From assembly GCA_965228345.1 (NCBI GenBank), contig CBDDHH010000004.1:663133-727132 (forward strand): a stretch of 64,000 nucleotides of DNA, given 5' to 3'. The stretch comes from Alphaproteobacteria bacterium. Its GTDB lineage: Bacteria; Pseudomonadota; Alphaproteobacteria; UBA7985. This document shows positions 1,089 to 16,272 of this stretch, in pieces. A program made the translations under genes and the position numbers. Every line of letters starts with the position of its first letter. The stretch's first letter is position 1. Below the pieces are notes generated by a model, which worked only from the letters and a program-made list of their open reading frames with translations, made no database searches and was not told where the DNA came from.

Positions 1089-1286
1089 TACCAACGGCAA
1101 AAAAAGTTGACACGTTTTTTGCCGTTTTATGTCTCGCGGCAGAAACGCTTCGCGTTTCGCCTCCGATGGGGCCTTCGCTTATGCCCCGAGGCGCGTGTCC
1201 GCTGTTCTCGGGCCGCTACGGGGGCCGCAGTCGCGCGGCCCTTATACCAGCGAACATAGGAGTCATTCTCAGTCGCCGCTGGTATA
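1088..1286 (+). mobile_element. MITE copy R1 (IS630-related multi-hairpin element)
   Basis: Left TIR ATACCAACGGCAAAAAAAGTTGACAC and right TIR region ...CGCCGCTGGTATA. Internal hairpins GGCAGAAACGCTTCGCGTTTCGCC and GGGGCCGCAGTCGCGCGGCCC. Sits on the rplL stop codon. Confidence 0.8.
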
Positions 1287-1516
1287 AGCACGCGCGCTTA
1301 GGAATTTATGATTTGGAAGAGGCCGTTTTCGGCCGTAGAGTCCGCGTGTTTTTTGGCACGAGTCGTCTTGTTGATGGGGTGTCCCTTGTGGGGTGACGTT
1401 CTTCCGCGCGGAATCCATCGCGGGTTGGAGACGGTGGAGACCACCTCGTCAGGCTTTGACCTGCCGCCCGTTTAGAGAAGGAAAACGGGAGTTTCATACC
1501 AGTTTTCCTTGAGAAT

Positions 1517-1777
1517 GACTCTTTATGAACTGGTATAATACCAGCGGCGATTTAAAATGACTCTTTTATTCGCTGGTATAAGGGCCGCGACTGCGGCCCC
1601 CGTAGCGGGCTCCAAGCCCGAAGGGCGCAGGGAACGCCAGCGCCAAAAACAAGCGGCCCCGAGATGAGCTAAGAAAGCGCCTCGGGGTATAAGCGAAGGG
1701 GCGGCGAAACGCGAAGCGTTTCTGCCGTGAGACATAAAACGGCTAAAAAAGTGTCAACTTTTTTCGCCGTTGGTATA
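1517..1777 (-). mobile_element. MITE copy R2 (inverted orientation, partial terminal-hairpin duplication)
   Basis: Near-identical to copy R7 (31507..31746). Ends ...TTTTTTCGCCGTTGGTATA. Contains the same GGCGAAACGCGAAGCGTTTCTGCC hairpin. Confidence 0.8.
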
Positions 1778-2002
1778 AGGTGTCGGGGGCGCTTTGTCTC
1801 ATTCCCGAAACGAGTCTGCGATCATGCCAAAGGGCGTTTCACAATTTCGCGCTTCGTGAACCTTGCGCAGGTGTGCGCTCACGAATTTTTCTGAGCCTTT
1901 GGCGAAAGACGCCGCGCCGGGCGCTGGCCCCGCTTGGGTTCCGGAGGCAAAGTGGGGGGCGTCGCAAGTTCGCGGTGCCCTTCAATCTATAGGAGACATG
2001 AC

Positions 2003-2434
2003 ATGTACAAAGCAGCCTTCACTCTTATTTCATCTCTTGCCTTAACTGTCGGTGTGGCCTGGGCCGATACCTTGCAGGTCAAAGTTACGATCCCAGAAGG
2101 CGATCGCAAGCTCGGTGCACTCAGGGTGGGTGTTTTCAAGTCGCAAGCACAATTTGATACTGGAGAGCCCGAGCTTGGGCTGATGCAAGAAGCGGTTCAT
2201 GGCGAAAACACGATCGCGATCGCGGATCTGCCTGCGGGCACTTACGGGCTTTCGGTGTTTCTTGATCGCAACGACGATGAGGAACTGAATAGTGGCCTAT
2301 TTGGCGCGCCCAGCGAGCCTTACGGATTTTCGCGCAACCCCACCATTCGCTTTTCCGCCCCCAAGTTCGATGACTGGAGCTTCCAATATGGTGGAAGCGG
2401 CGGCGAATTGGTTGTCGATTTGCTCGGGATCTAG
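2003..2434 (+). CDS. DUF2141 family secreted protein (signal peptide)
   Basis: AGGAGA Shine-Dalgarno 6 nt upstream of the ATG at 2003. N-terminal signal peptide MYKAAFTLISSLALTVGVAWA. Conserved GAPSEPYGFSRNP...PKFDD core resembles DUF2141. Confidence 0.6.
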   Translation: MYKAAFTLISSLALTVGVAWADTLQVKVTIPEGDRKLGALRVGVFKSQAQFDTGEPELGLMQEAVHGENTIAIADLPAGTYGLSVFLDRNDDEELNSGLFGAPSEPYGFSRNPTIRFSAPKFDDWSFQYGGSGGELVVDLLGI

Positions 2435-2436
2435 TC

Positions 2437-3969
2437 GTGGATCGCCGGACTCTATTGAAAGGCGCGGCGGCAGGAACGCTCGCCGCGCCCGCACTGTCGC
2501 TGCCACTGTGTGCCCAATCGACCCCCGAACAAGCGCGGTTCGATGCCTTTGCTGACGCCTTGGAGGCCAAGCCCTGGCTGCGGGGGTTTGTTGGCGCGCA
2601 GGTGTTGCAAACCCAGACCGCCATGGAAACGGTCCATGGGCAGATGCCGGAGGGTTTGCAAGGGGCCTTATTTCGCAACGGCCCTGCCTACCATGACATA
2701 GGCGGGGAGCGGTTCGGTCACTGGTTCGATGCTCCAGGCATGGTGCAGAAGTACACGATCGGGGCGAACGGAGTGCAGCACAAGGGACGCCTGATCGAAA
2801 CCGCGCGCAATCGCCGTGAATTGACGCAGCAGCGCATGCTCTTTGAGGCCTTTGGTACCAAACGCACCGACCTAGGCTCGGGCGGGTCGGCCGATGGCCA
2901 AAATGTTGGCAACATCAGCATCTTGCACCATGCAGGGGAACTGATGGCTACGTGGGAAGGGGGGTCGGCCCATGTGCTCGATTCCGAAACGCTGGAAACC
3001 GTGGGTCGCAAAGACTGGTCACTCGAGACGACGGGCGCGCCGTTCAGCGCCCATACACGCCATGACCCAGATGGGAATCTCTGGTCGATCGGCTATTCGA
3101 TTGCACCCGCCGGGCTGCTACTCTACCACATCGACGCTGCTGGCGCGCTGCAGCAGGTACGGGCGATCCCGTTCGATGCCGCGCCCATGATCCACGATTT
3201 TGTGGTGACGGCGACCAAGCTGGTGGTGCTGGTGCCACCCTTGCAGGTCGATCACCTCGACGAGGAAGCCAGCATTCTCGGCCTCTATTCCTGGCACGGA
3301 GATCAGCCGACGCGGGCTTTGATATTTGACAAGGCCGACCTGAGCCTCACGCAGGAAATTGAGCTCGACCCCTTTTGGGTATTTCACTTCGGCAATGGCT
3401 ACGATAGCGGTCCCGACGAGATCACCCTGGACCTGACCTTGCACGAAACGCCTGACTTTATGCTGGATACTGCATTCGCAATGATGGATGGGTCTTGGGA
3501 CGGCCACGTTTCGACCGAGGTTGTTTACACCCAGATTCGTCTGAATTTGCGCACGGGCCGAAGCCAGATTGAGACCGTTCCCGAGTTGCAAACGGCAGAA
3601 TTTTTGAAGATCGACCCCCGCGCGAGTCTAGGTGACCATCGCCACACCCTCATGCTAACACTGCGGCAGGCGGAGCGAGACGCCGCCGCGCCGCCGTGGT
3701 TTGGCCAGCTTGCACTCTACGATCGCCATAGGGAACGCCTCCAAACCTATCGAGCCGCTGATACGGAGATGATGGAGGAGCATGTCATGGTTCCCAAGGC
3801 TTCCGGCGGGGACGGCGTTTGGCTCCTGGGCAGCAGTCAAGACTGGGCCGAAGGGGCTACCTACCTGTCTGTTTACGATGGCGCCGCCCTCGCAGCGGGC
3901 CCTGTCTATCGTGCGCGCCTGGAGGGGACTCTGCCGCTAGGACTGCACGGGCACTTTGTCTCGGGTTAG
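2437..3969 (+). CDS. Carotenoid cleavage oxygenase family protein (RPE65/lignostilbene dioxygenase-like) with Tat signal
   Basis: GTG start. Twin-arginine motif RRTLLKGAAAGTLAAPA. His-containing motifs FDAPGMV / HHAG / FHFGNGY / HGHF typical of carotenoid oxygenases. ~510 aa. Confidence 0.8.
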   Translation: MDRRTLLKGAAAGTLAAPALSLPLCAQSTPEQARFDAFADALEAKPWLRGFVGAQVLQTQTAMETVHGQMPEGLQGALFRNGPAYHDIGGERFGHWFDAPGMVQKYTIGANGVQHKGRLIETARNRRELTQQRMLFEAFGTKRTDLGSGGSADGQNVGNISILHHAGELMATWEGGSAHVLDSETLETVGRKDWSLETTGAPFSAHTRHDPDGNLWSIGYSIAPAGLLLYHIDAAGALQQVRAIPFDAAPMIHDFVVTATKLVVLVPPLQVDHLDEEASILGLYSWHGDQPTRALIFDKADLSLTQEIELDPFWVFHFGNGYDSGPDEITLDLTLHETPDFMLDTAFAMMDGSWDGHVSTEVVYTQIRLNLRTGRSQIETVPELQTAEFLKIDPRASLGDHRHTLMLTLRQAERDAAAPPWFGQLALYDRHRERLQTYRAADTEMMEEHVMVPKASGGDGVWLLGSSQDWAEGATYLSVYDGAALAAGPVYRARLEGTLPLGLHGHFVSG

Positions 3970-3976
3970 GGGTCTA

Positions 3977-4168
3977 ATACCAACGGTCATAAAAAGTGAC
4001 CTTTTCATGTCCGTTTCGTGTCTCACGGCAGAAACGCTTCGCGTTTCGCCGCCCCTTCGCTGATACCCCGAGGCGCTTTCTTAGCTCATCTCGGGGCCGC
4101 TACGGGGGCCGCAGTCGCGGCCCTTATACCAGCGAATAAATGAGTCATTTTAAATCGCCGCTGGTATA
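3977..4168 (+). mobile_element. MITE copy R3
   Basis: TAATACCAACGGTCATAAAAAGTGACC left end, ...TAAATCGCCGCTGGTATAAG right end, same internal hairpins. Confidence 0.8.
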
Positions 4169-4924: not shown

Positions 4925-5018
4925 GGCCAATAGACCCGCTTCACGATAAACTGAAAAAGGGCTTTTGCATGCAAACAAGGTCTTGTCGAAGTCAGGTTTG
5001 GCTGATTCTAGCCTTTTT

Positions 5019-5873
5019 ATGAGAACCTTCAAAATCCTTAAGAAGCAACCGCGCCTGTTTTTCCGCTTAAGTGGGATAAGGGTCAGCGATTTTGACGACA
5101 TTGCAGAGAAGATTTTGCCGCTTTGGGAGGCTCACAACCATCAGCGTCTATCTCGCCCCCATCGCCAACGCGCGATTGGGGGCGGGCCAAGCCATAAGCT
5201 AAGCTTTGAGGAGATGCTGCTTTTATGCCTGATCTATTATCGGACTTACATCAATCATGAGTTTCTGGGTTTGATATTTTCGGTTTCAGATAGCACGAGC
5301 ATCCGAACCGCCAATACAATGACCAAGCTATTGGCAGGCCATTTTCAGATGCCCGAGCGCAGGCTTGCTTTAAGTGAGGATGATAAGGAGCAGCTCATAT
5401 ATCTGATTGTCGATGGGACCGAGCGCCCCTGTCAGCGCCCCAAGAAATCGAAGGGCCGAAAGAAGATCTACTCGGGGAAAAAGAAGCGCTTTACTCATAA
5501 GCATCAAATTGTCGTCGATGATAAGAAGCGCATTCGTGCTTGTGGCCCCGTTCACCCTGGGCGCAAGCACGACAAAACCCTTTATGATCAAAGCCATCTG
5601 GACAAGCCACCAGATACCCTGCTCTTGGGCGACTTAGCTTATGTAGGAACCAACTGCGAAGTCCCGATAAAGAAATCCAAGAACCAAAATCTAAGCCAAG
5701 AACAAAAAGACTACAATAAGTGGTTCAGCTCTATGCGCGTGAAGGTTGAGCATGGCATTGGACGCATGAAAAAGTTCAACATTTTCTCTGACATCTCCAG
5801 AGGAAACCGACATGAGAACATGATTGCTAAGAATGTCGCGGCTCTGGCAAACATCAATTTAAAAATTTGCTGA
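5019..5873 (+). CDS. DDE_Tnp_4 (Harbinger/PIF-like, IS5-related) transposase
   Basis: LLCLIYYRTY...YLIVDGTERPCQRP...KHQIVVDDKKRIRACGPVHPGRKHDKTLYD...LLGDLAYVG...VEHGIGRMKKFNIFSD pattern of DDE_Tnp_4 transposases. Low-GC context. Start uncertain. Confidence 0.65.
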   Translation: MRTFKILKKQPRLFFRLSGIRVSDFDDIAEKILPLWEAHNHQRLSRPHRQRAIGGGPSHKLSFEEMLLLCLIYYRTYINHEFLGLIFSVSDSTSIRTANTMTKLLAGHFQMPERRLALSEDDKEQLIYLIVDGTERPCQRPKKSKGRKKIYSGKKKRFTHKHQIVVDDKKRIRACGPVHPGRKHDKTLYDQSHLDKPPDTLLLGDLAYVGTNCEVPIKKSKNQNLSQEQKDYNKWFSSMRVKVEHGIGRMKKFNIFSDISRGNRHENMIAKNVAALANINLKIC

Positions 5874-6268: not shown

Positions 6269-7432
6269 ATGAAACGTCGTGATTTTTTGGCGACAGCAGG
6301 CGTTGCTGGAGCCGTTGGTGTAGCAGCTGGCGTTGCTATTTCTCGTAGCACTGGCCCCGGGCGAGGCGACGATACTGACGGCCCCAGTGTCGAAGAGACC
6401 AGTCTTTCGACCCCTGCCCTTAACCCGGACCGTGTCCCTGTTGCGTTGGTCTCAACATGGCCGCGCGACTTCCCTGGTTTGGGAACGGGTGCGCAACGCT
6501 TTGCCGAACGGCTTTCGACTCTGTCTGACGGACGCTTCCAGGTGGAGTACTTTGCAGCTGGCGAACGTGTTGGCGCCTTTGATTCCTTTGATGCCGTGGC
6601 GTCGGGCGATGCCCAGGGATATCACGGCGCGGAATACTATTGGAAAGGCCGCCATCCAGGCTGGGCCTATTTCACTGCCGTCCCCTTCGGCCTGACCTAC
6701 ACTGAGCAAAACGCCTGGATCCGCTTTGGCGGCGGGCAAGAGCTATGGGACGAACTGGCCGGTGAGTTTGGCCTCAAAGGCCTCATGTGCGGCAACACGG
6801 GCGTTCAGATGGGCGGCTGGTTCAACAAGGAAATCAACTCCGCCGACGATTTGGCAGGCTTGAAGATGCGGATCCCAGGGCTTGGCGGTGACGTTATGGC
6901 CAAGCTGGGCGCCTCGCCCGTGTCCCTGCCCGGTGGCCAAATTTACGAAAACCTGATTTCTGGTGCCATCGACGCCACCGAATGGGTTGGCCCCTGGAAC
7001 GATGAAATCATGAAGTTCTACGAAGCCACGCAGTACTACTATTTCCCTGGGTTCCACGAGCCGGGCGCAGCGCTGGCTGCCACGTTCAACGCCAGCTGGT
7101 GGAGCGGCTTGAGTGCGACCGACAAGGCCCTAATCGAAGCCGCCGCAGCAACAGAAAACGACGTCATGATGTCTGAATACAATGCCAAAAACGGGGCAGC
7201 CCTTGCACGCCTCATCAACGATCAAGGGGTTGAGGTTCGCAAGTTTACCAATGACACCTATGATGCCTTTGGCGCCGCGTCAGACGAGGTCTTTGCCGAG
7301 GTCCAAGAACACTCTGACTTGGCCGCACGCATCCATGCATCGTTTTTAAAGGGTCGCCAAGATATCGGCGGTTGGACCAGCCTGTCTGACCAAGCCTACG
7401 TGGAGCAGCGCAACCGCGTACTCGGCGTTTAA
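6269..7432 (+). CDS. dctP: TRAP transporter substrate-binding protein, DctP family (Tat signal)
   Basis: GGAGGA Shine-Dalgarno. RRDFLATAGVAGAVGVAA Tat signal. Conserved FAAGERVGAFDSFDAVASGDA...VPFGLT...MGGWF...GLKMRIPGLGG...YENLISGAIDATEW...YYYFPGFHEPG. Confidence 0.85.
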   Translation: MKRRDFLATAGVAGAVGVAAGVAISRSTGPGRGDDTDGPSVEETSLSTPALNPDRVPVALVSTWPRDFPGLGTGAQRFAERLSTLSDGRFQVEYFAAGERVGAFDSFDAVASGDAQGYHGAEYYWKGRHPGWAYFTAVPFGLTYTEQNAWIRFGGGQELWDELAGEFGLKGLMCGNTGVQMGGWFNKEINSADDLAGLKMRIPGLGGDVMAKLGASPVSLPGGQIYENLISGAIDATEWVGPWNDEIMKFYEATQYYYFPGFHEPGAALAATFNASWWSGLSATDKALIEAAAATENDVMMSEYNAKNGAALARLINDQGVEVRKFTNDTYDAFGAASDEVFAEVQEHSDLAARIHASFLKGRQDIGGWTSLSDQAYVEQRNRVLGV

Positions 7433-7505: not shown

Positions 7506-8471
7506 ATGCCTTCTGCGTCGAAGGCTTTGGTTCCTGCCTTGCTGTCCGAGGCCTGGCATCCCCTTTGTCGCTTTTTTGCCTTGGCAATGGTCTTGGCTGC
7601 GGGCGCCTACGTTCTCAACAACTTCCTAATTCATATGGGCGCTCAGGCGCGGCTTCTGGACGGGGGTCTCCTCACCGCGACCATCTACGCTGTTGCTATG
7701 GGCGGTGCGCTATGGATGTCCTATGCGTGGCGTGATCGCCCGCTTGATCGCGTGTCAGAGGCGCTTTCAAGCGCCAATGAGACATTTATTCGCGGCGCGT
7801 TCTGGGCTGTCTTCCTTGTGGGGCTTGTCGATGCATCCATCTCGCTCTTGCGGATTGAGGGCTTGGCTCCCAACCTGTTCGGCGACGACTTGGCCGCCAA
7901 GCTGAACCGCCAGCACTTTCGCGGGGCCAACGCTCACTTCCCGCTCGTTCTTATCGGTTTTGCCTTGGCCTTTGTGACCCGCGGACTGGGCTTTATATGG
8001 CTGTCGCTGCTCGTCGTTTTTGCCCAGCTGGCCATCGTGATTATGGTGAACGTCTATTCCTATGAGCAAGCCTTCCTATCGGACTTAGTGCGTTTCTGGT
8101 ACGCCGCCCTGTTCTTGTTTGCCACGGCCCATACTCTATTGGCGGGGGGGCATGTCCGCGTCGATGTTGTCTTCGCCAACCTGCCCCAGCGCCAGAAAAA
8201 CTGGGCCAACTTTTGGGGCGTGTTGACGCTGGGTCTGCCGCTGGCCTGGGTCACATTGGTCGCGGGCACTTGGGACAAAACCCGCATTATCAACGCCCCG
8301 ATCCTAAACTATGAAATCGGTCAACAATCGGTCGGCGGGCTCTATATCAAGTACTTGATGGCGGGGTTTTTGCTGATCCTCGCCGTGACCCTCATTGTGC
8401 AATTTACCGCGCTTCTGCTCTCATCCGTGAATGACCAAGGACGCCAACACGCCGAAGGGGTGTCAAGCTAA
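7506..8471 (+). CDS. dctQ: TRAP transporter small permease (DctQ-like, extended)
   Basis: Polytopic membrane protein with the GGHVRVDVV motif characteristic of DctQ. Sits between dctP and dctM and abuts dctM. Confidence 0.7.
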   Translation: MPSASKALVPALLSEAWHPLCRFFALAMVLAAGAYVLNNFLIHMGAQARLLDGGLLTATIYAVAMGGALWMSYAWRDRPLDRVSEALSSANETFIRGAFWAVFLVGLVDASISLLRIEGLAPNLFGDDLAAKLNRQHFRGANAHFPLVLIGFALAFVTRGLGFIWLSLLVVFAQLAIVIMVNVYSYEQAFLSDLVRFWYAALFLFATAHTLLAGGHVRVDVVFANLPQRQKNWANFWGVLTLGLPLAWVTLVAGTWDKTRIINAPILNYEIGQQSVGGLYIKYLMAGFLLILAVTLIVQFTALLLSSVNDQGRQHAEGVSS

Positions 8472-11074
8472 TGGATCCCGCAGCCCTCTTTCTCGGTCTG
8501 CTCGTCATTCTGATGGCCGGGGCGCTCATATCAGGTTTTCCTGTTGCCTTTGCCCTGCCAGGGTCGGCGATTTTGACCATCGCGCTCGCGGCAGCGGCGG
8601 GGCAGATTTTTGCGAACGATGCCACGGCTTACTTCGCTATCAGTGGCGACAACGCCCTCAAAACTTTTTCAACCGGGGTCACCAACTTCCGCGCCATCTA
8701 TTGGGAACCCGATCGCGATACCCTGATCGCCATTCCGCTGTTCATCTTCATGGGCATCATGCTGCAGCGGTCCAAAATTGCCGAGGATTTGCTGATTACC
8801 ATGTCGCAGCTGTTCGGGCCTGTGCCGGGCGGGCTCGGGATTTCAGTTGTCATCGTCGGCGCGCTGCTGGCTGCGACGACGGGAATCGTAGGCGCCACTG
8901 TTGTTGCCATGGGGCTAATTTCCCTACCGCTCATGATACGCAACAAGTACAACATCCCCCTTGCGACGGGAACGATTTGCGCCTCTGGCACCCTTGGCCA
9001 GATCATTCCGCCGTCGATTGTACTGATTATTTTGGCCGACCAGTTGGCTTCGGCAGCCGACGCCGCCCAATCCCTGCGCCAAAATGCCTACGGCGCGGCC
9101 AATGACACCCTCGCCTCCTCGATGCCCACCGACCTAGCGGTGGGAACCGCGAGCGCTGGTGATATGTTCCTGGGTGCGCTCATCCCCGGCGCGGCACTCA
9201 TGGTGCCGATCTATATCCTCTATATACTAATCACCGCCCTCATCCGCCCAACGCTGGCACCGCCCGTGCGCTTCCAGGGGGATCGCCGCGGGTTTTTACG
9301 CGCGGTCCTCATGTCTCTTGTGCCGCCGTTGTTACTGATCGCCTTGGTTCTTGGGTCGATCTTGGCGGGCTATGCGACCGTGAACCAGGCGGGGGCGCTC
9401 GGCGCGTCGGGCGCCATTTTGATGGCCGGCTATCGCCTCATGGGTGCGTCGAAACTGCGCCACTTCGCGCCGGCGATTTTGGCCGTTGCGGCCATCTTGG
9501 GCTTGGGGGTCTTGCAAACGACCTTTGACCTCAACATCCGCGCGCCGCACAAGACCGCCAGCGATGTCCTGGGGTTGCTCATGGCGACGGGCCTGGTCGG
9601 AGTTTTGCTGTTCGCCCTGGCTTGGTCCACCTGGCGGATCTACACCTACGACGATGTGCTGCGCGAGGTTATGGTGGAATCGGCCAAAACTACCTCCATG
9701 GTGTTTTTGATCCTCGTTGGGGCGGCCATGCTGACGGCGGCTTTTCGCGCCTTCGGCGGCGAGCATTGGGTCAGAGACTTCCTCACCGGCCTACCAGGCG
9801 GGTTCATGACGCAGTTTTTGGTAGTAATGCTCGTCATGTTTGTCCTCGGCTTTTTCCTCGACTTTATCGAAATCGCGGTCGTGGTGGTTCCTATCACGGC
9901 GCCGATTTTGCTTGCGGACCCGACGGCTAATATTTCGGCCATCTGGCTTGGCATTATGATCGGCATTAACATACAGACCTCGTTTCTCACCCCGCCCTTT
10001 GGGTTTGCCTTGTTCTATTTGCGCGGGGTTGCCGACGCGTCGGTCAAAACTTTGCAAATCTATCGCGGAGTCGTTGTCTTTATTGCCTTGCAACTTGGCG
10101 CCTTGATGATCGTCGGGGCCAACGAACGCTTGGCGAACTTCATGCCGCGCTACGCTGCCTTGCTACGATCAACGGCGCCGCCGCCGGCACAACCAGCCTT
10201 GCAGCAGTGCCTGGAACCGCTCATGTTCACCGACGCGCTCGCCCGCGAGCCAGCAGCGCGGGCGGCTGCTGCGCAGCTTGAGGCACTCGATCTCTCGATC
10301 CTGCCCACGGATCAGGCTGATAAAATCCTGACCGCCAGCGCCAGCGTGGACAAGTCCTACGAACAGATCGCCCTGCTGCAAACTGCGCAATCGGCCAATG
10401 AAGCGGCCGCGAACCGTACTTGGGACATTGACGGCCAAATGTGGACCTACGCTGACCTCCATGCCCATGTGCGGCGGCGGGAGCGCGACGCCATTCGTGC
10501 GGGGATCGCGCCTAACATACCCGAGGGATGGGCGCAGGCCTTGGCCTTTGCCCAGGCCGCACAAAACGACGAAACCGCGGCCCGCAACGGCTTCCGTCGC
10601 CTTGACAAGGCCTACCGAGACCTTGAAGATGTGTTGACAGACTTGGGTCGCGCCGCGCCTTTAGTCACCCTTACGGACCAGGTCACGGCACTGGGGCGTC
10701 ACCTTGAACGTGCCGCCGGAAGCGAAATTGAAGCACTGCACCAAGAGCTCACGACGCTCAAGTCTGCGCTTTCGGCTATTGGCAACGTGTCGAACGTCAC
10801 AACCCCTTTCAGCAGAATCGATCGCGCCCTGCAAAGCACCCCGCCCGATCTAGAAACCGCGCGTGCGCTCTATAGAGAGATGGCGCAAACCTACGCCCAG
10901 GAAGTCGCATGGCGACAGGCAGGAACGGCAGATCTTGCGGATGCCTTGCAAGCCTTCCTGCGCGAAGTACAGGCGGGCGTAGCGATTCGAACCTTGGACG
11001 CGATCCCGACCCAGTACCGCCGCGACCTGGCTTGGTGCCTCTCGGGTCATCGCGATATTTCCCTTCGTTTCTAG
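8471..11074 (+). CDS. dctM: TRAP transporter large permease DctM fused to a ~300-aa C-terminal soluble Ala-rich helical extension
   Basis: The N-terminal ~560 aa is a typical DctM (many TM segments, ...FYLRGVAD...). The ORF then continues in frame for ~300 aa with high GC3 codon usage and no TM segments. Confidence 0.75.
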   Translation: MDPAALFLGLLVILMAGALISGFPVAFALPGSAILTIALAAAAGQIFANDATAYFAISGDNALKTFSTGVTNFRAIYWEPDRDTLIAIPLFIFMGIMLQRSKIAEDLLITMSQLFGPVPGGLGISVVIVGALLAATTGIVGATVVAMGLISLPLMIRNKYNIPLATGTICASGTLGQIIPPSIVLIILADQLASAADAAQSLRQNAYGAANDTLASSMPTDLAVGTASAGDMFLGALIPGAALMVPIYILYILITALIRPTLAPPVRFQGDRRGFLRAVLMSLVPPLLLIALVLGSILAGYATVNQAGALGASGAILMAGYRLMGASKLRHFAPAILAVAAILGLGVLQTTFDLNIRAPHKTASDVLGLLMATGLVGVLLFALAWSTWRIYTYDDVLREVMVESAKTTSMVFLILVGAAMLTAAFRAFGGEHWVRDFLTGLPGGFMTQFLVVMLVMFVLGFFLDFIEIAVVVVPITAPILLADPTANISAIWLGIMIGINIQTSFLTPPFGFALFYLRGVADASVKTLQIYRGVVVFIALQLGALMIVGANERLANFMPRYAALLRSTAPPPAQPALQQCLEPLMFTDALAREPAARAAAAQLEALDLSILPTDQADKILTASASVDKSYEQIALLQTAQSANEAAANRTWDIDGQMWTYADLHAHVRRRERDAIRAGIAPNIPEGWAQALAFAQAAQNDETAARNGFRRLDKAYRDLEDVLTDLGRAAPLVTLTDQVTALGRHLERAAGSEIEALHQELTTLKSALSAIGNVSNVTTPFSRIDRALQSTPPDLETARALYREMAQTYAQEVAWRQAGTADLADALQAFLREVQAGVAIRTLDAIPTQYRRDLAWCLSGHRDISLRF

Positions 11075-14601: not shown

Positions 14602-16272
14602 CTAAAACAGCGCTGCCTGGTAAGCGCTGCGCACCGTCAATAGGGCCTCGGCCAGTTCGCGGTCGTGCCGTTTCTGGTTGCGCGTTCTTGCACAGAGGTT
14701 TCGAAAGGTGGTTTGACGCGTCTCTGTCCGAGCAATGGCGGGGAGATTCGGCAGGGTGCCACCGACGGCCAGGCTAACGAGGTCTAAGGCCTTATCGTGT
14801 TGAGCCCCGCAAACGTTAGGTACCACGCCCCAATAGGAAAGCGGGCGACCGTCAGCACGAAATAGGAAAGCGTTTGTGATGGCCAGCGCTCCCCCGTTTG
14901 GCAAGGCGGTGATAATTTGCTGCGATCCCTTGCCAAACGTCGTGGACCCTAAAACCACCGCACGCCGATTGTCCTGTAGAGCGCTGGCCAGCAATTCGCT
15001 GGCAGATGCAGAGTTTTGATTGACCAGAACGACCAGCGGCAAGTCGAGCGGAATCACGGCAGGTCGTTGCGACCGCAAGACGCTTTGGCGACCAAGTCCC
15101 CCAACACGGAACAAAGGTCTGCCAGCCTCTACAAACAAGTCAAGAATTTCTAGAGCTTGGCTGACAGACCCGCCGCTATCATCGCGCAGATCGAGAATCA
15201 GGCCGCTCAAGTTCACTTGAGCGGCCAAGGCAGCATAGGTCTCTGAGACATAGCTTGCGGCGGTTGAATCAAAGACCAGTAGCGGGATATACCCAATAGT
15301 ACCGCGTATTTCGGAGCTCTGAAACTCATTAACGGTCTGTCGTACCCTCACCAGAGTGATGAGGCGGGAGCCTAGCTCGCTTGCAATTTGCAATCGCAGG
15401 GTTTCACCCACCCGTCCCGAGAGCCTTTCTGCTCGCCCTTCAAGGGTGTTGATGTCGGTGAGTCTGACCCCATCGGCATGGGTAATGCGGTCACCTATCC
15501 GTACATTCCACTCAGCAGCTGGGGAGTTACTTCGGACGTTGGTGACAATCAACCCCAAGGGATCGAAGTCAACTTGAATGCCGACGCCGGACATGCCCCC
15601 GATCACGGCATTAAATTGCTGGATCTCGCTGGGGTTGAGATATGTGGTAAAACGCACATCGCCTAGACTGGCTCGCAAACCAGCCTCAAGATAGCTTTCC
15701 ATCGCATCCTGAGGGTTTCTTGCGGCCCAGGGGCCGTTTTGCGTTCGGATCTGGTCCAAGACTCCGCCGACACGTGCACCATCGGTTGGGTAGCGCAGCG
15801 CCAGCCCGCCGAGCCCAACGGCCCTGAGCCCTGCAGTGGTGAAGGCGCTCATATTGAGGGGGGTGACATGAGTAGTCTGCAAGGAATTGTACACAAACCC
15901 TAAGGTCTCGGAAAAGAAGTCGGCGCTTTCTGGAAAGAACTGGCCCTGGTTCGGTGTCGGGAAGTTGGCTGTGAGGTCGGTTCCAGCGCCCGCGTCGGTT
16001 TGCGGATAGCTTGACGAACTCAGCCAGCCTGAGGTGCTAGATTCATAATTCGAAGAGGCGTAGCGAGCCCCGCCGATGCTGGAACTGAGCGAGCATCCTG
16101 CGAGGCTGAAGCTCAAAACCCCGAGCAGAGTCAGTCGGGCAGTGTGAGAACGTCTGTGTTGTGCAGGCAGCTTTGTGCCTGGAATTGCGCGTGCCTTCCC
16201 GCGTTGGCCAGGCAACGCCTGCACAATTTTCTGGCGCGCAGGGCACAAGGGGATCCAATAGCACTGTAACAT
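14602..16272 (-). CDS. S41 family C-terminal processing peptidase (PDZ + peptidase S41), probable lipoprotein
   Basis: LILDLRDDSGGSVSQALEILDLFV and LVVLVNQNSASASELLASAL...GSTTFGKGSQQ motifs. Lipobox-like LAGCS. True start probably downstream of 16272 (non-ATG start near the signal peptide). Confidence 0.75.
   Translation of the reverse strand: MLQCYWIPLCPARQKIVQALPGQRGKARAIPGTKLPAQHRRSHTARLTLLGVLSFSLAGCSLSSSIGGARYASSNYESSTSGWLSSSSYPQTDAGAGTDLTANFPTPNQGQFFPESADFFSETLGFVYNSLQTTHVTPLNMSAFTTAGLRAVGLGGLALRYPTDGARVGGVLDQIRTQNGPWAARNPQDAMESYLEAGLRASLGDVRFTTYLNPSEIQQFNAVIGGMSGVGIQVDFDPLGLIVTNVRSNSPAAEWNVRIGDRITHADGVRLTDINTLEGRAERLSGRVGETLRLQIASELGSRLITLVRVRQTVNEFQSSEIRGTIGYIPLLVFDSTAASYVSETYAALAAQVNLSGLILDLRDDSGGSVSQALEILDLFVEAGRPLFRVGGLGRQSVLRSQRPAVIPLDLPLVVLVNQNSASASELLASALQDNRRAVVLGSTTFGKGSQQIITALPNGGALAITNAFLFRADGRPLSYWGVVPNVCGAQHDKALDLVSLAVGGTLPNLPAIARTETRQTTFRNLCARTRNQKRHDRELAEALLTVRSAYQAALF

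Follow-up and report, generated by a model that had tools for sequence, protein, structure and literature searches.

A TakP-type TRAP transporter whose large permease subunit carries a conserved C-terminal helical domain, probably on the periplasmic side

[quoted passage not shown] The question is raised by dctM, the third gene of a dctP-dctQ-dctM operon in a 64,000-nucleotide stretch of DNA (hereafter the window) from an Alphaproteobacteria bacterium of the UBA7985 lineage (assembly GCA_965228345.1, contig CBDDHH010000004.1, positions 663,133 to 727,132). An initial annotation, made from the sequence alone, had pointed out this extension, hereafter the tail, and had suggested that it might be a cytoplasmic appendage. 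The comparative and structure-prediction analyses reported here indicate that the tail is a genuine, widely conserved domain and place it, in all likelihood, on the opposite side of the membrane.

The dctM start codon overlaps the dctQ stop (TAATG), its TAG stop codon occupies positions 11072-11074, and the next gene begins 3 bases further on. The final hydrophobic segment of the encoded protein stops near residue 553, and the motif NERLANFMP extends to residue 559; the 308 residues beyond it contain no hydrophobic segment and are 19% Ala, 12% Leu and 9% Arg. Counted from N556, the tail is a hydrophilic stretch of 312 aa. G+C content by codon position is coding-like throughout, with 0.64-0.72 at third positions (GC3) against ~0.5 at second positions (GC2), so that the coding-like bias, uninterrupted frame and lack of transmembrane (TM) segments described in the initial annotation are all borne out. 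Upstream of the tail, the Pfam DctM model (PF06808) matches within residues ~13-548 with 193.7 bits, well above its cut-off of 23.8, and phmmer matches of the membrane domain are IseQM/SiaQM chains. Foldseek aligns the AlphaFold2 (AF2) model to PpSiaM (7qha_B; E 7.5e-9, TM-score 0.79 normalised to the target) and to 9pym_A (E 4.8e-9), and the membrane domain is accordingly predicted to share the VcINDY-like elevator fold of the solved M subunits. These solved subunits align only to columns ~545-555 of the model, and the tail-less M subunits of plasmid TakP-type systems are 463-596 aa long, in agreement with the view that DctM normally ends just past its last TM helix. The NCBIfam model TIGR00786 (dctM) reaches 229.9 bits, below its cut-off of 268.45 although homology is clear, the insertions and the tail being what puts the protein beneath the threshold. 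With this shortfall, automated annotation of the subfamily proceeds on weaker rules and the extra domain is never flagged.

The scan for relatives used one genome per species and recovered at least 568 of them; the comparisons below refer to the best 80 loci, found in Alpha- and Gammaproteobacteria, SAR11 single-cell genomes, SAR324 and Desulfofustis. One frame without stops runs across query residues ~1-867 to a common C-terminus in 79 of the 80 species, and the genomes with the uninterrupted fusion include complete chromosomes and cultured strains. At the remaining locus (L014, 8001-10648) the gene is broken into ORFs (open reading frames) of 435 and 402 aa, which may reflect a frameshift, a pseudogene or an assembly error in a metagenome-assembled genome. 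The best 120 database relatives, among them proteins of cultured Roseibium, Stappia and Microvirga, are all 864-912 aa long and carry no annotation other than "TRAP transporter large permease subunit". A phmmer search with the tail alone over 1.84 billion representatives yielded 195 matches, and a profile search 63. All of these, on inspection, end at the protein C-terminus, and neither a stand-alone tail gene nor a tail attached to another kind of protein was present among them. The short matches inspected all start within the tail or within the last helix of DctM, and are best read as fragments produced by contig edges or frameshifts. A tblastn search for the tail on plasmids gave no match. 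Relative to a 91%-identical ortholog (L001), dN/dS is 0.15 for the tail and 0.037 for the membrane domain; the tail is therefore translated and under purifying selection, albeit more loosely than the membrane domain. An artefact, in which a sequencing or assembly frameshift had falsely fused dctM to a downstream gene, could appeal to L014 and to the few database entries that are likewise split or truncated, the window itself bearing no sign of it. Recurrence of the single ORF in independent species genomes, absence of the separate gene from the database searches and purifying selection on the tail all contradict it, and we regard an artefact as excluded by the comparative data, its probability being close to nil. 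The two refutations envisaged for the fusion, a sequencing error or homologs in which the tail is a separate conserved ORF, thus both fail, and orthologs do carry the tail. A hidden internal start that would create a separate gene was also considered: the candidate codon, M558, is Leu in most homologs and has no evident ribosome-binding site.

AF2 models the tail with high confidence (predicted local distance difference test, pLDDT, 91; predicted template-modelling score, pTM, 0.84) as a compact multi-helix domain with one beta-hairpin, and it is thus predicted to be a discrete, independently folding, all-helical domain. Structure searches with it return only generic four-helix bundles. The tail matches no Pfam or NCBIfam model, a Pfam search with 30 tails produced only coiled-coil noise, with no sensor-domain family (4HB_MCP, HBM or similar) among the matches, and a tail profile run against PDB sequences likewise produced only coiled-coil noise. 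Alignment of the thirds of the tail with hhalign revealed no internal repeats (probabilities <= 3%). The helical character and the lack of a recognisable domain noted in the initial annotation therefore stand; its further description of a coiled coil or helical repeat fits only loosely, the predicted structure being compact and interrupted by a beta-hairpin, and no repeats having been detected in the sequence.

Identity across species is ~65% in the membrane domain and ~25% in the tail, with strong conservation concentrated at both ends of the tail. In alignment A1 and in the 80-species alignment the linker that follows the last TM helix contains invariant columns at N556, P559, P570-572, P575 and C580. 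At the C-terminus, C856, S864, L865 and F867 are invariant in alignment A1, with H860 and D862 at >=90%, and in the 80-species alignment conservation reaches >=95% at C856, H860, D862, S864 and F867; the codons of this motif were read directly from the DNA. Near-invariant positions in the middle of the tail are mostly Arg, Tyr, Trp and His in alignment A1 (Y660, H664, R668, W687, R705, Y708, R709, D712, Y715, R784, W814, R815, Y829 and R840). AF2 confidence is low, in both models, for the last ~6 residues, and this invariant C-terminal peptide may consequently have a binding partner that the models do not include. Tail lengths in the species set range from 312 to 343 residues, with a median of 338 from the N556 equivalent. 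The tail of the window (10136-11071) is the shortest variant, a form shared with its close relatives L001 and P0003.

On which side of the membrane does this domain lie? TRAP M subunits have 12 TM segments with both termini outside (N-out, C-out) and TMs 10-12 in the transport domain (PMC9971032), and the N-out/C-out arrangement holds in solved structures (PMC11801797). In the window protein the last helix, residues 527-550, is aligned with its counterpart at the end of the solved M subunits and is the final hydrophobic segment of the chain. Taken together, this helix homology, the known topology and the lack of any later hydrophobic segment would put the tail on the periplasmic side, joined to the mobile elevator domain. 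The membrane domain departs from the canonical one by an insertion: the hidden Markov model alignment to 9pym has a gap separating query residues 317 and 400, two stretches (335-352 and 368-384) are hydrophobic, and AF2 predicts helices at 329-351 and 363-392. We interpret the insertion, residues 329-392, as an extra TM hairpin; since two helices are an even number, the periplasmic assignment is unchanged. An acidic loop (residues 188-228) is also enlarged relative to canonical DctM. Both the hairpin and the loop occur in tail-less TakP-type paralogs of 515-525 aa, and hence predate the tail.

Residue composition points the same way. An average of 2.2 Lys/Arg residues precede the last TM helix, in the loop leading into it, and 1.1 follow. 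The tail contains exactly two cysteines, C580 and C856, in 80 of 80 species and in 79 of 80 database proteins, and the number of cysteines in the membrane domain varies from 0 to 5. An invariant cysteine pair bracketing a fast-evolving exported domain has the appearance of a classic structural-disulfide signature. From homology together with these statistics, we consider it very likely that the tail is periplasmic and closed by a C580-C856 disulfide. The location proposed in the initial annotation, a cytoplasmic regulatory or interaction appendage, could draw on the hydrophilic nature of the tail and the lack of a signal of its own, and such an appendage might hold a Cys2-His-Asp metal site, for which C580, C856, H860 and D862, all of them invariant or close to it, would be conceivable ligands. 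The solved M subunits nevertheless end in the periplasm, the last TM helix is homologous to theirs with nothing hydrophobic beyond it, and the strict two-cysteine count and drop in Lys/Arg fit an exported domain, so that we judge a cytoplasmic tail highly improbable. A regulatory or interaction module remains a plausible description, transferred to the periplasmic side.

The operon partners of the tailed subunit indicate what kind of transporter it belongs to. The closest solved relatives of DctP, the solute-binding protein (SBP), are the pyruvate/alpha-keto-acid receptors 5cm6, 4pet, 7ug8 and 2hzk (TakP), all ~40% identical, with E values of 1e-72 to 1e-68 (5cm6 and 4pet ~1e-72). The match to TakP (2hzk, E 8.5e-68) runs from query residues 44-377 to 18-352 of the 365 residues of the chain, and DctP thus appears homologous to TakP over its full length, C-terminal helix region included. 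TakP forms a helix-swapped dimer, and its alpha-keto-acid ligands are bound together with a cation (PMC1839085). By extension from the solved relatives, the substrate is probably an alpha-keto acid such as pyruvate, and DctP is probably dimeric as well. DctP has a twin-arginine translocation (TAT)-like signal and, directly behind it (residues ~24-46), a low-complexity insert of ~23 residues rich in Gly/Asp/Ser/Thr, which is absent from most orthologs. Every locus with sufficient flanking sequence has a dctP gene upstream of the tailed M, with full-length matches at 57-95% identity, and in these loci, drawn from the same 80, the order P-Q-M is always kept.

DctQ is present in an unusually long form, about double the normal size. 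Its N-terminal extension (7506-8030) is poorly conserved and has family-averaged hydrophobic segments at residues 21-41, 54-72, 93-114 and 142-160, with Lys/Arg counts that do not fit a simple four-TM model. An adjacent Q ORF was recovered for 72 tailed M genes, and for 71 of them it encodes a DctQ of 320-380 aa; the DctQ next to the tail-less 525-aa paralogs in L024, L049 and L058 is 172-184 aa. The tail is co-inherited with the long DctQ (~150 extra residues) and with one clade of TakP-like SBPs. What defines the subfamily is thus a pair of additions, the tail and the long DctQ, which were gained together and come on top of the TM hairpin shared with tail-less relatives.

Table 1. Coordinates (positions in the window) of the TRAP operon, of the parts of dctM and of neighbouring genes.
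Feature	Position	Strand	Description
dctP, TakP-type solute-binding protein, TAT-like signal	6269..7432	+	387 aa; Pfam DctP 183.8 bits, weak TAT_signal match
dctQ, long form	7506..8471	+	321 aa; ~175-residue N-terminal extension, canonical DctQ core at residues ~178-298 (Pfam DctQ)
dctM with tail	8471-11074	+	single ORF, 867 aa, ATG start (ORF listing)
dctM membrane domain, TRAP large-permease fold	8471..10135	+	residues 1-555; PF06808
Enlarged acidic loop of DctM	9032-9154		residues 188-228
Inserted pair of hydrophobic helices	9455..9646	+	residues 329-392; absent from canonical DctM
Conserved linker after last TM helix	10136..10210	+	N556..P559, T568-A-P-P-P-x-x-P575, to invariant Cys580
Tail domain proper	10193..11041	+	residues ~575-857; all-alpha, one beta-hairpin (residues 650-659)
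C-terminal motif	11036..11071	+	C856-x3-H860-x-D862-x-S864-L865-x-F867-COOH
Insertion sequence (IS)-type DDE transposase	4965-5873	+	DDE_Tnp_4 + HTH_Tnp_4
S41 C-terminal-processing peptidase	14602-16272	-	with PDZ

Beyond P-Q-M, no conserved neighbour that would hint at function was found across the loci, and only the closest relative also has the M17 peptidase gene downstream. The IS-type transposase lies ~400 bp upstream of the operon. A C-terminal-processing peptidase of the S41 family is encoded 3.5 kb downstream; it is not conserved near the operon elsewhere, and its proximity to a gene whose product ends in the invariant ...S-L-x-F is probably coincidental. In SAR11 genomes (L062-L065, ~1100-4120), a canonical TRAP system (DctP ~26% identical, M 453 aa) stands immediately upstream of the tailed one.

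What, then, might the tail do? The M subunit of a TakP-type TRAP transporter would have gained at its C-terminus an independently folding helical domain of ~310-340 residues, leaving the membrane directly after the TM12 homolog, the last helix of the mobile elevator domain, and so coming to lie in the periplasm next to the docking site of the binding protein. The C580-C856 disulfide would probably staple the two ends of the domain together, so that the invariant C-terminal peptide (C-x3-H-x-D-x-S-L-x-F) would return to the neighbourhood of the membrane. So placed, the tail could serve as an accessory platform in the periplasm, on which the binding protein is captured, oriented or retained at the transporter. 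A functional analogue of such a role would be the P2 loop of MalF in the maltose ABC importer, a large periplasmic domain of a membrane subunit that contacts the maltose-binding protein. We prefer the platform because a 35-kDa domain at that spot can hardly avoid a docked binding protein; position and context suggest a MalF-P2-like handling of the SBP, which we nonetheless propose only tentatively, rating it possible and somewhat short of probable. A bolder version would make the tail a new class of periplasmic receptor domain on the elevator, tethering or pre-positioning the dimeric TakP-type SBP, with a C-terminal latch that couples docking to elevator movement. The free C-terminal peptide (...H-R-D-I-S-L-x-F-COOH) would then insert into the SBP or into the extended DctQ scaffold. 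This version we hold to be unlikely.

Several observations count against the platform. The SBPs of tailed systems show no group-specific insertion when set against those of six tail-less TakP-type systems, a small set, and differ from them only by substitutions. In four genomes (L024, L049, L050 and L058), a single dctP lies beside both the tailed QM pair and a tail-less Q'M' pair; the arrangement occurs in Sneathiella and Pannonibacter, and at L049 (3189-10646) and L024 (5858-12843) there is no second dctP within the locus, Q' being 172-184 aa and M' 525 aa. One dctP beside two permease pairs suggests that the SBP serves two membrane units and can work without a tail, and if both pairs do use it, the tail is not needed for docking as such. 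At ~25% identity the tail also evolves fast for a specific interface, though ~20 of its positions are near-invariant. C580, C856, H860 and D862 could, as an alternative to the disulfide, form a Cys2-His-Asp metal site. Finally, the periplasmic side, the disulfide and the contact between tail and SBP are each inferred.

Two other periplasmic roles compete with the platform. The tail and the extra DctQ helices might enlarge or stiffen the scaffold, or dimerise QM, for instance as a QM dimer matching the helix-swapped TakP dimer, with no binding of the SBP at all. Such a structural or assembly module gains from the strict co-occurrence of the tail with extra membrane helices in Q, a subunit seen as a scaffold extension in elevator-type TRAP transporters (PMC9971032), from the dimeric state of TakP (PMC1839085), and from the tail itself, whose long helices and length-variable helical hairpins resemble those of typical oligomerisation elements and whose fast-evolving sequence with conserved ends would suit a structural spacer. 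By homology, however, the tail sits on TM12, part of the mobile transport domain rather than of the scaffold, AF2 yields a compact monomeric domain, and tail-less TakP-type systems make do with the same kind of SBP; the idea, its dimer-matching form included, is in our view doubtful. Alternatively, the tail might be a periplasmic sensor or regulatory domain in which a fold resembling a four-helix bundle (4HB) binds a small molecule or ion and gates the elevator, as in 4HB and HBM domains, or in which the C-terminal peptide serves as a tethered latch. The likeness to such bundles is generic: 4HB_MCP, HBM of McpS and QseE, as well as HPt, cytochrome b562 and PsbQ, align to only 80-175 of the 312 tail residues at 7-16% identity, and none matches over the entire domain. 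Unlike the 4HB sensors and other 4HB proteins, the tail has no Pfam match and carries no conserved ligand-binding signature. We rate a sensory role as improbable.

How an SBP is coupled to an elevator-type secondary transporter is an open mechanistic question for TRAP systems, and the solved ones (SiaPQM, IseQM) all lack an accessory domain. The subfamily described here adds a ~35-kDa, probably periplasmic domain on the mobile domain, extra helices in Q and an extra TM hairpin in M. It is widespread among marine Alpha- and Gammaproteobacteria, its carriers including genomes of SAR11 and the cultured Roseibium, Stappia, Reinekea and Loktanella. If the tail does handle the SBP, the subfamily would constitute a natural experiment on coupling between SBP and transporter; should the receptor and latch version prove true, it would represent a new way of coupling an SBP to a secondary transporter, abundant in marine bacteria including SAR11. 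At minimum, the tail is a new domain family lacking a Pfam model, for which cultured hosts exist.

Compared with the canonical DctM/SiaM proteins of solved structure (PpSiaQM, 7qha; HiSiaQM, 7qe5 and 8thi; FnSiaQM, 8y4w; IseQM, 9pym), residues 1-555 of the window protein have the same fold and belong to the same family, PF06808. The three-gene P-Q-M organization is common to both, and the elevator and N-out/C-out topology are shared by homology. A canonical M, in contrast, is ~425 aa long and ends a few residues past TM12; to this the window M adds two membrane helices (329-392), the larger loop (~188-228) and the 312-aa tail. The likeness to MalF P2 is one of proposed function: P2 has an unrelated fold, belongs to another class of transporter, is an internal loop where the tail is a C-terminal domain, and resembles the tail neither in sequence nor in structure. 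In the full text available to us, with subscription-only reviews (such as the 2011 FEMS review) outside reach, there was no account of a C-terminal or periplasmic domain of DctM, and the tail is apparently undescribed. Nearest to the window system are the tail-less TakP-type transporters (the "mannitol/chloroaromatic" COG-type), represented by TakPQM of Rhodobacter sphaeroides, the plasmid systems L081-L086 and the paralogs in L024 and L049. They use a TakP-like SBP, 33-45% identical to the window DctP in the systems sampled, and their M subunits (515-525 aa) have the same extra TM hairpin and are 41-47% identical to the window membrane domain. Their M stops right after the last TM helix, and their DctQ, in the paralogs measured, is 172-184 aa. 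The transporter family is thus a known one, and what is new is the tail together with the long DctQ elaboration, two additions that no Pfam or NCBIfam domain model covers and that set this subfamily apart from its tail-less relatives.

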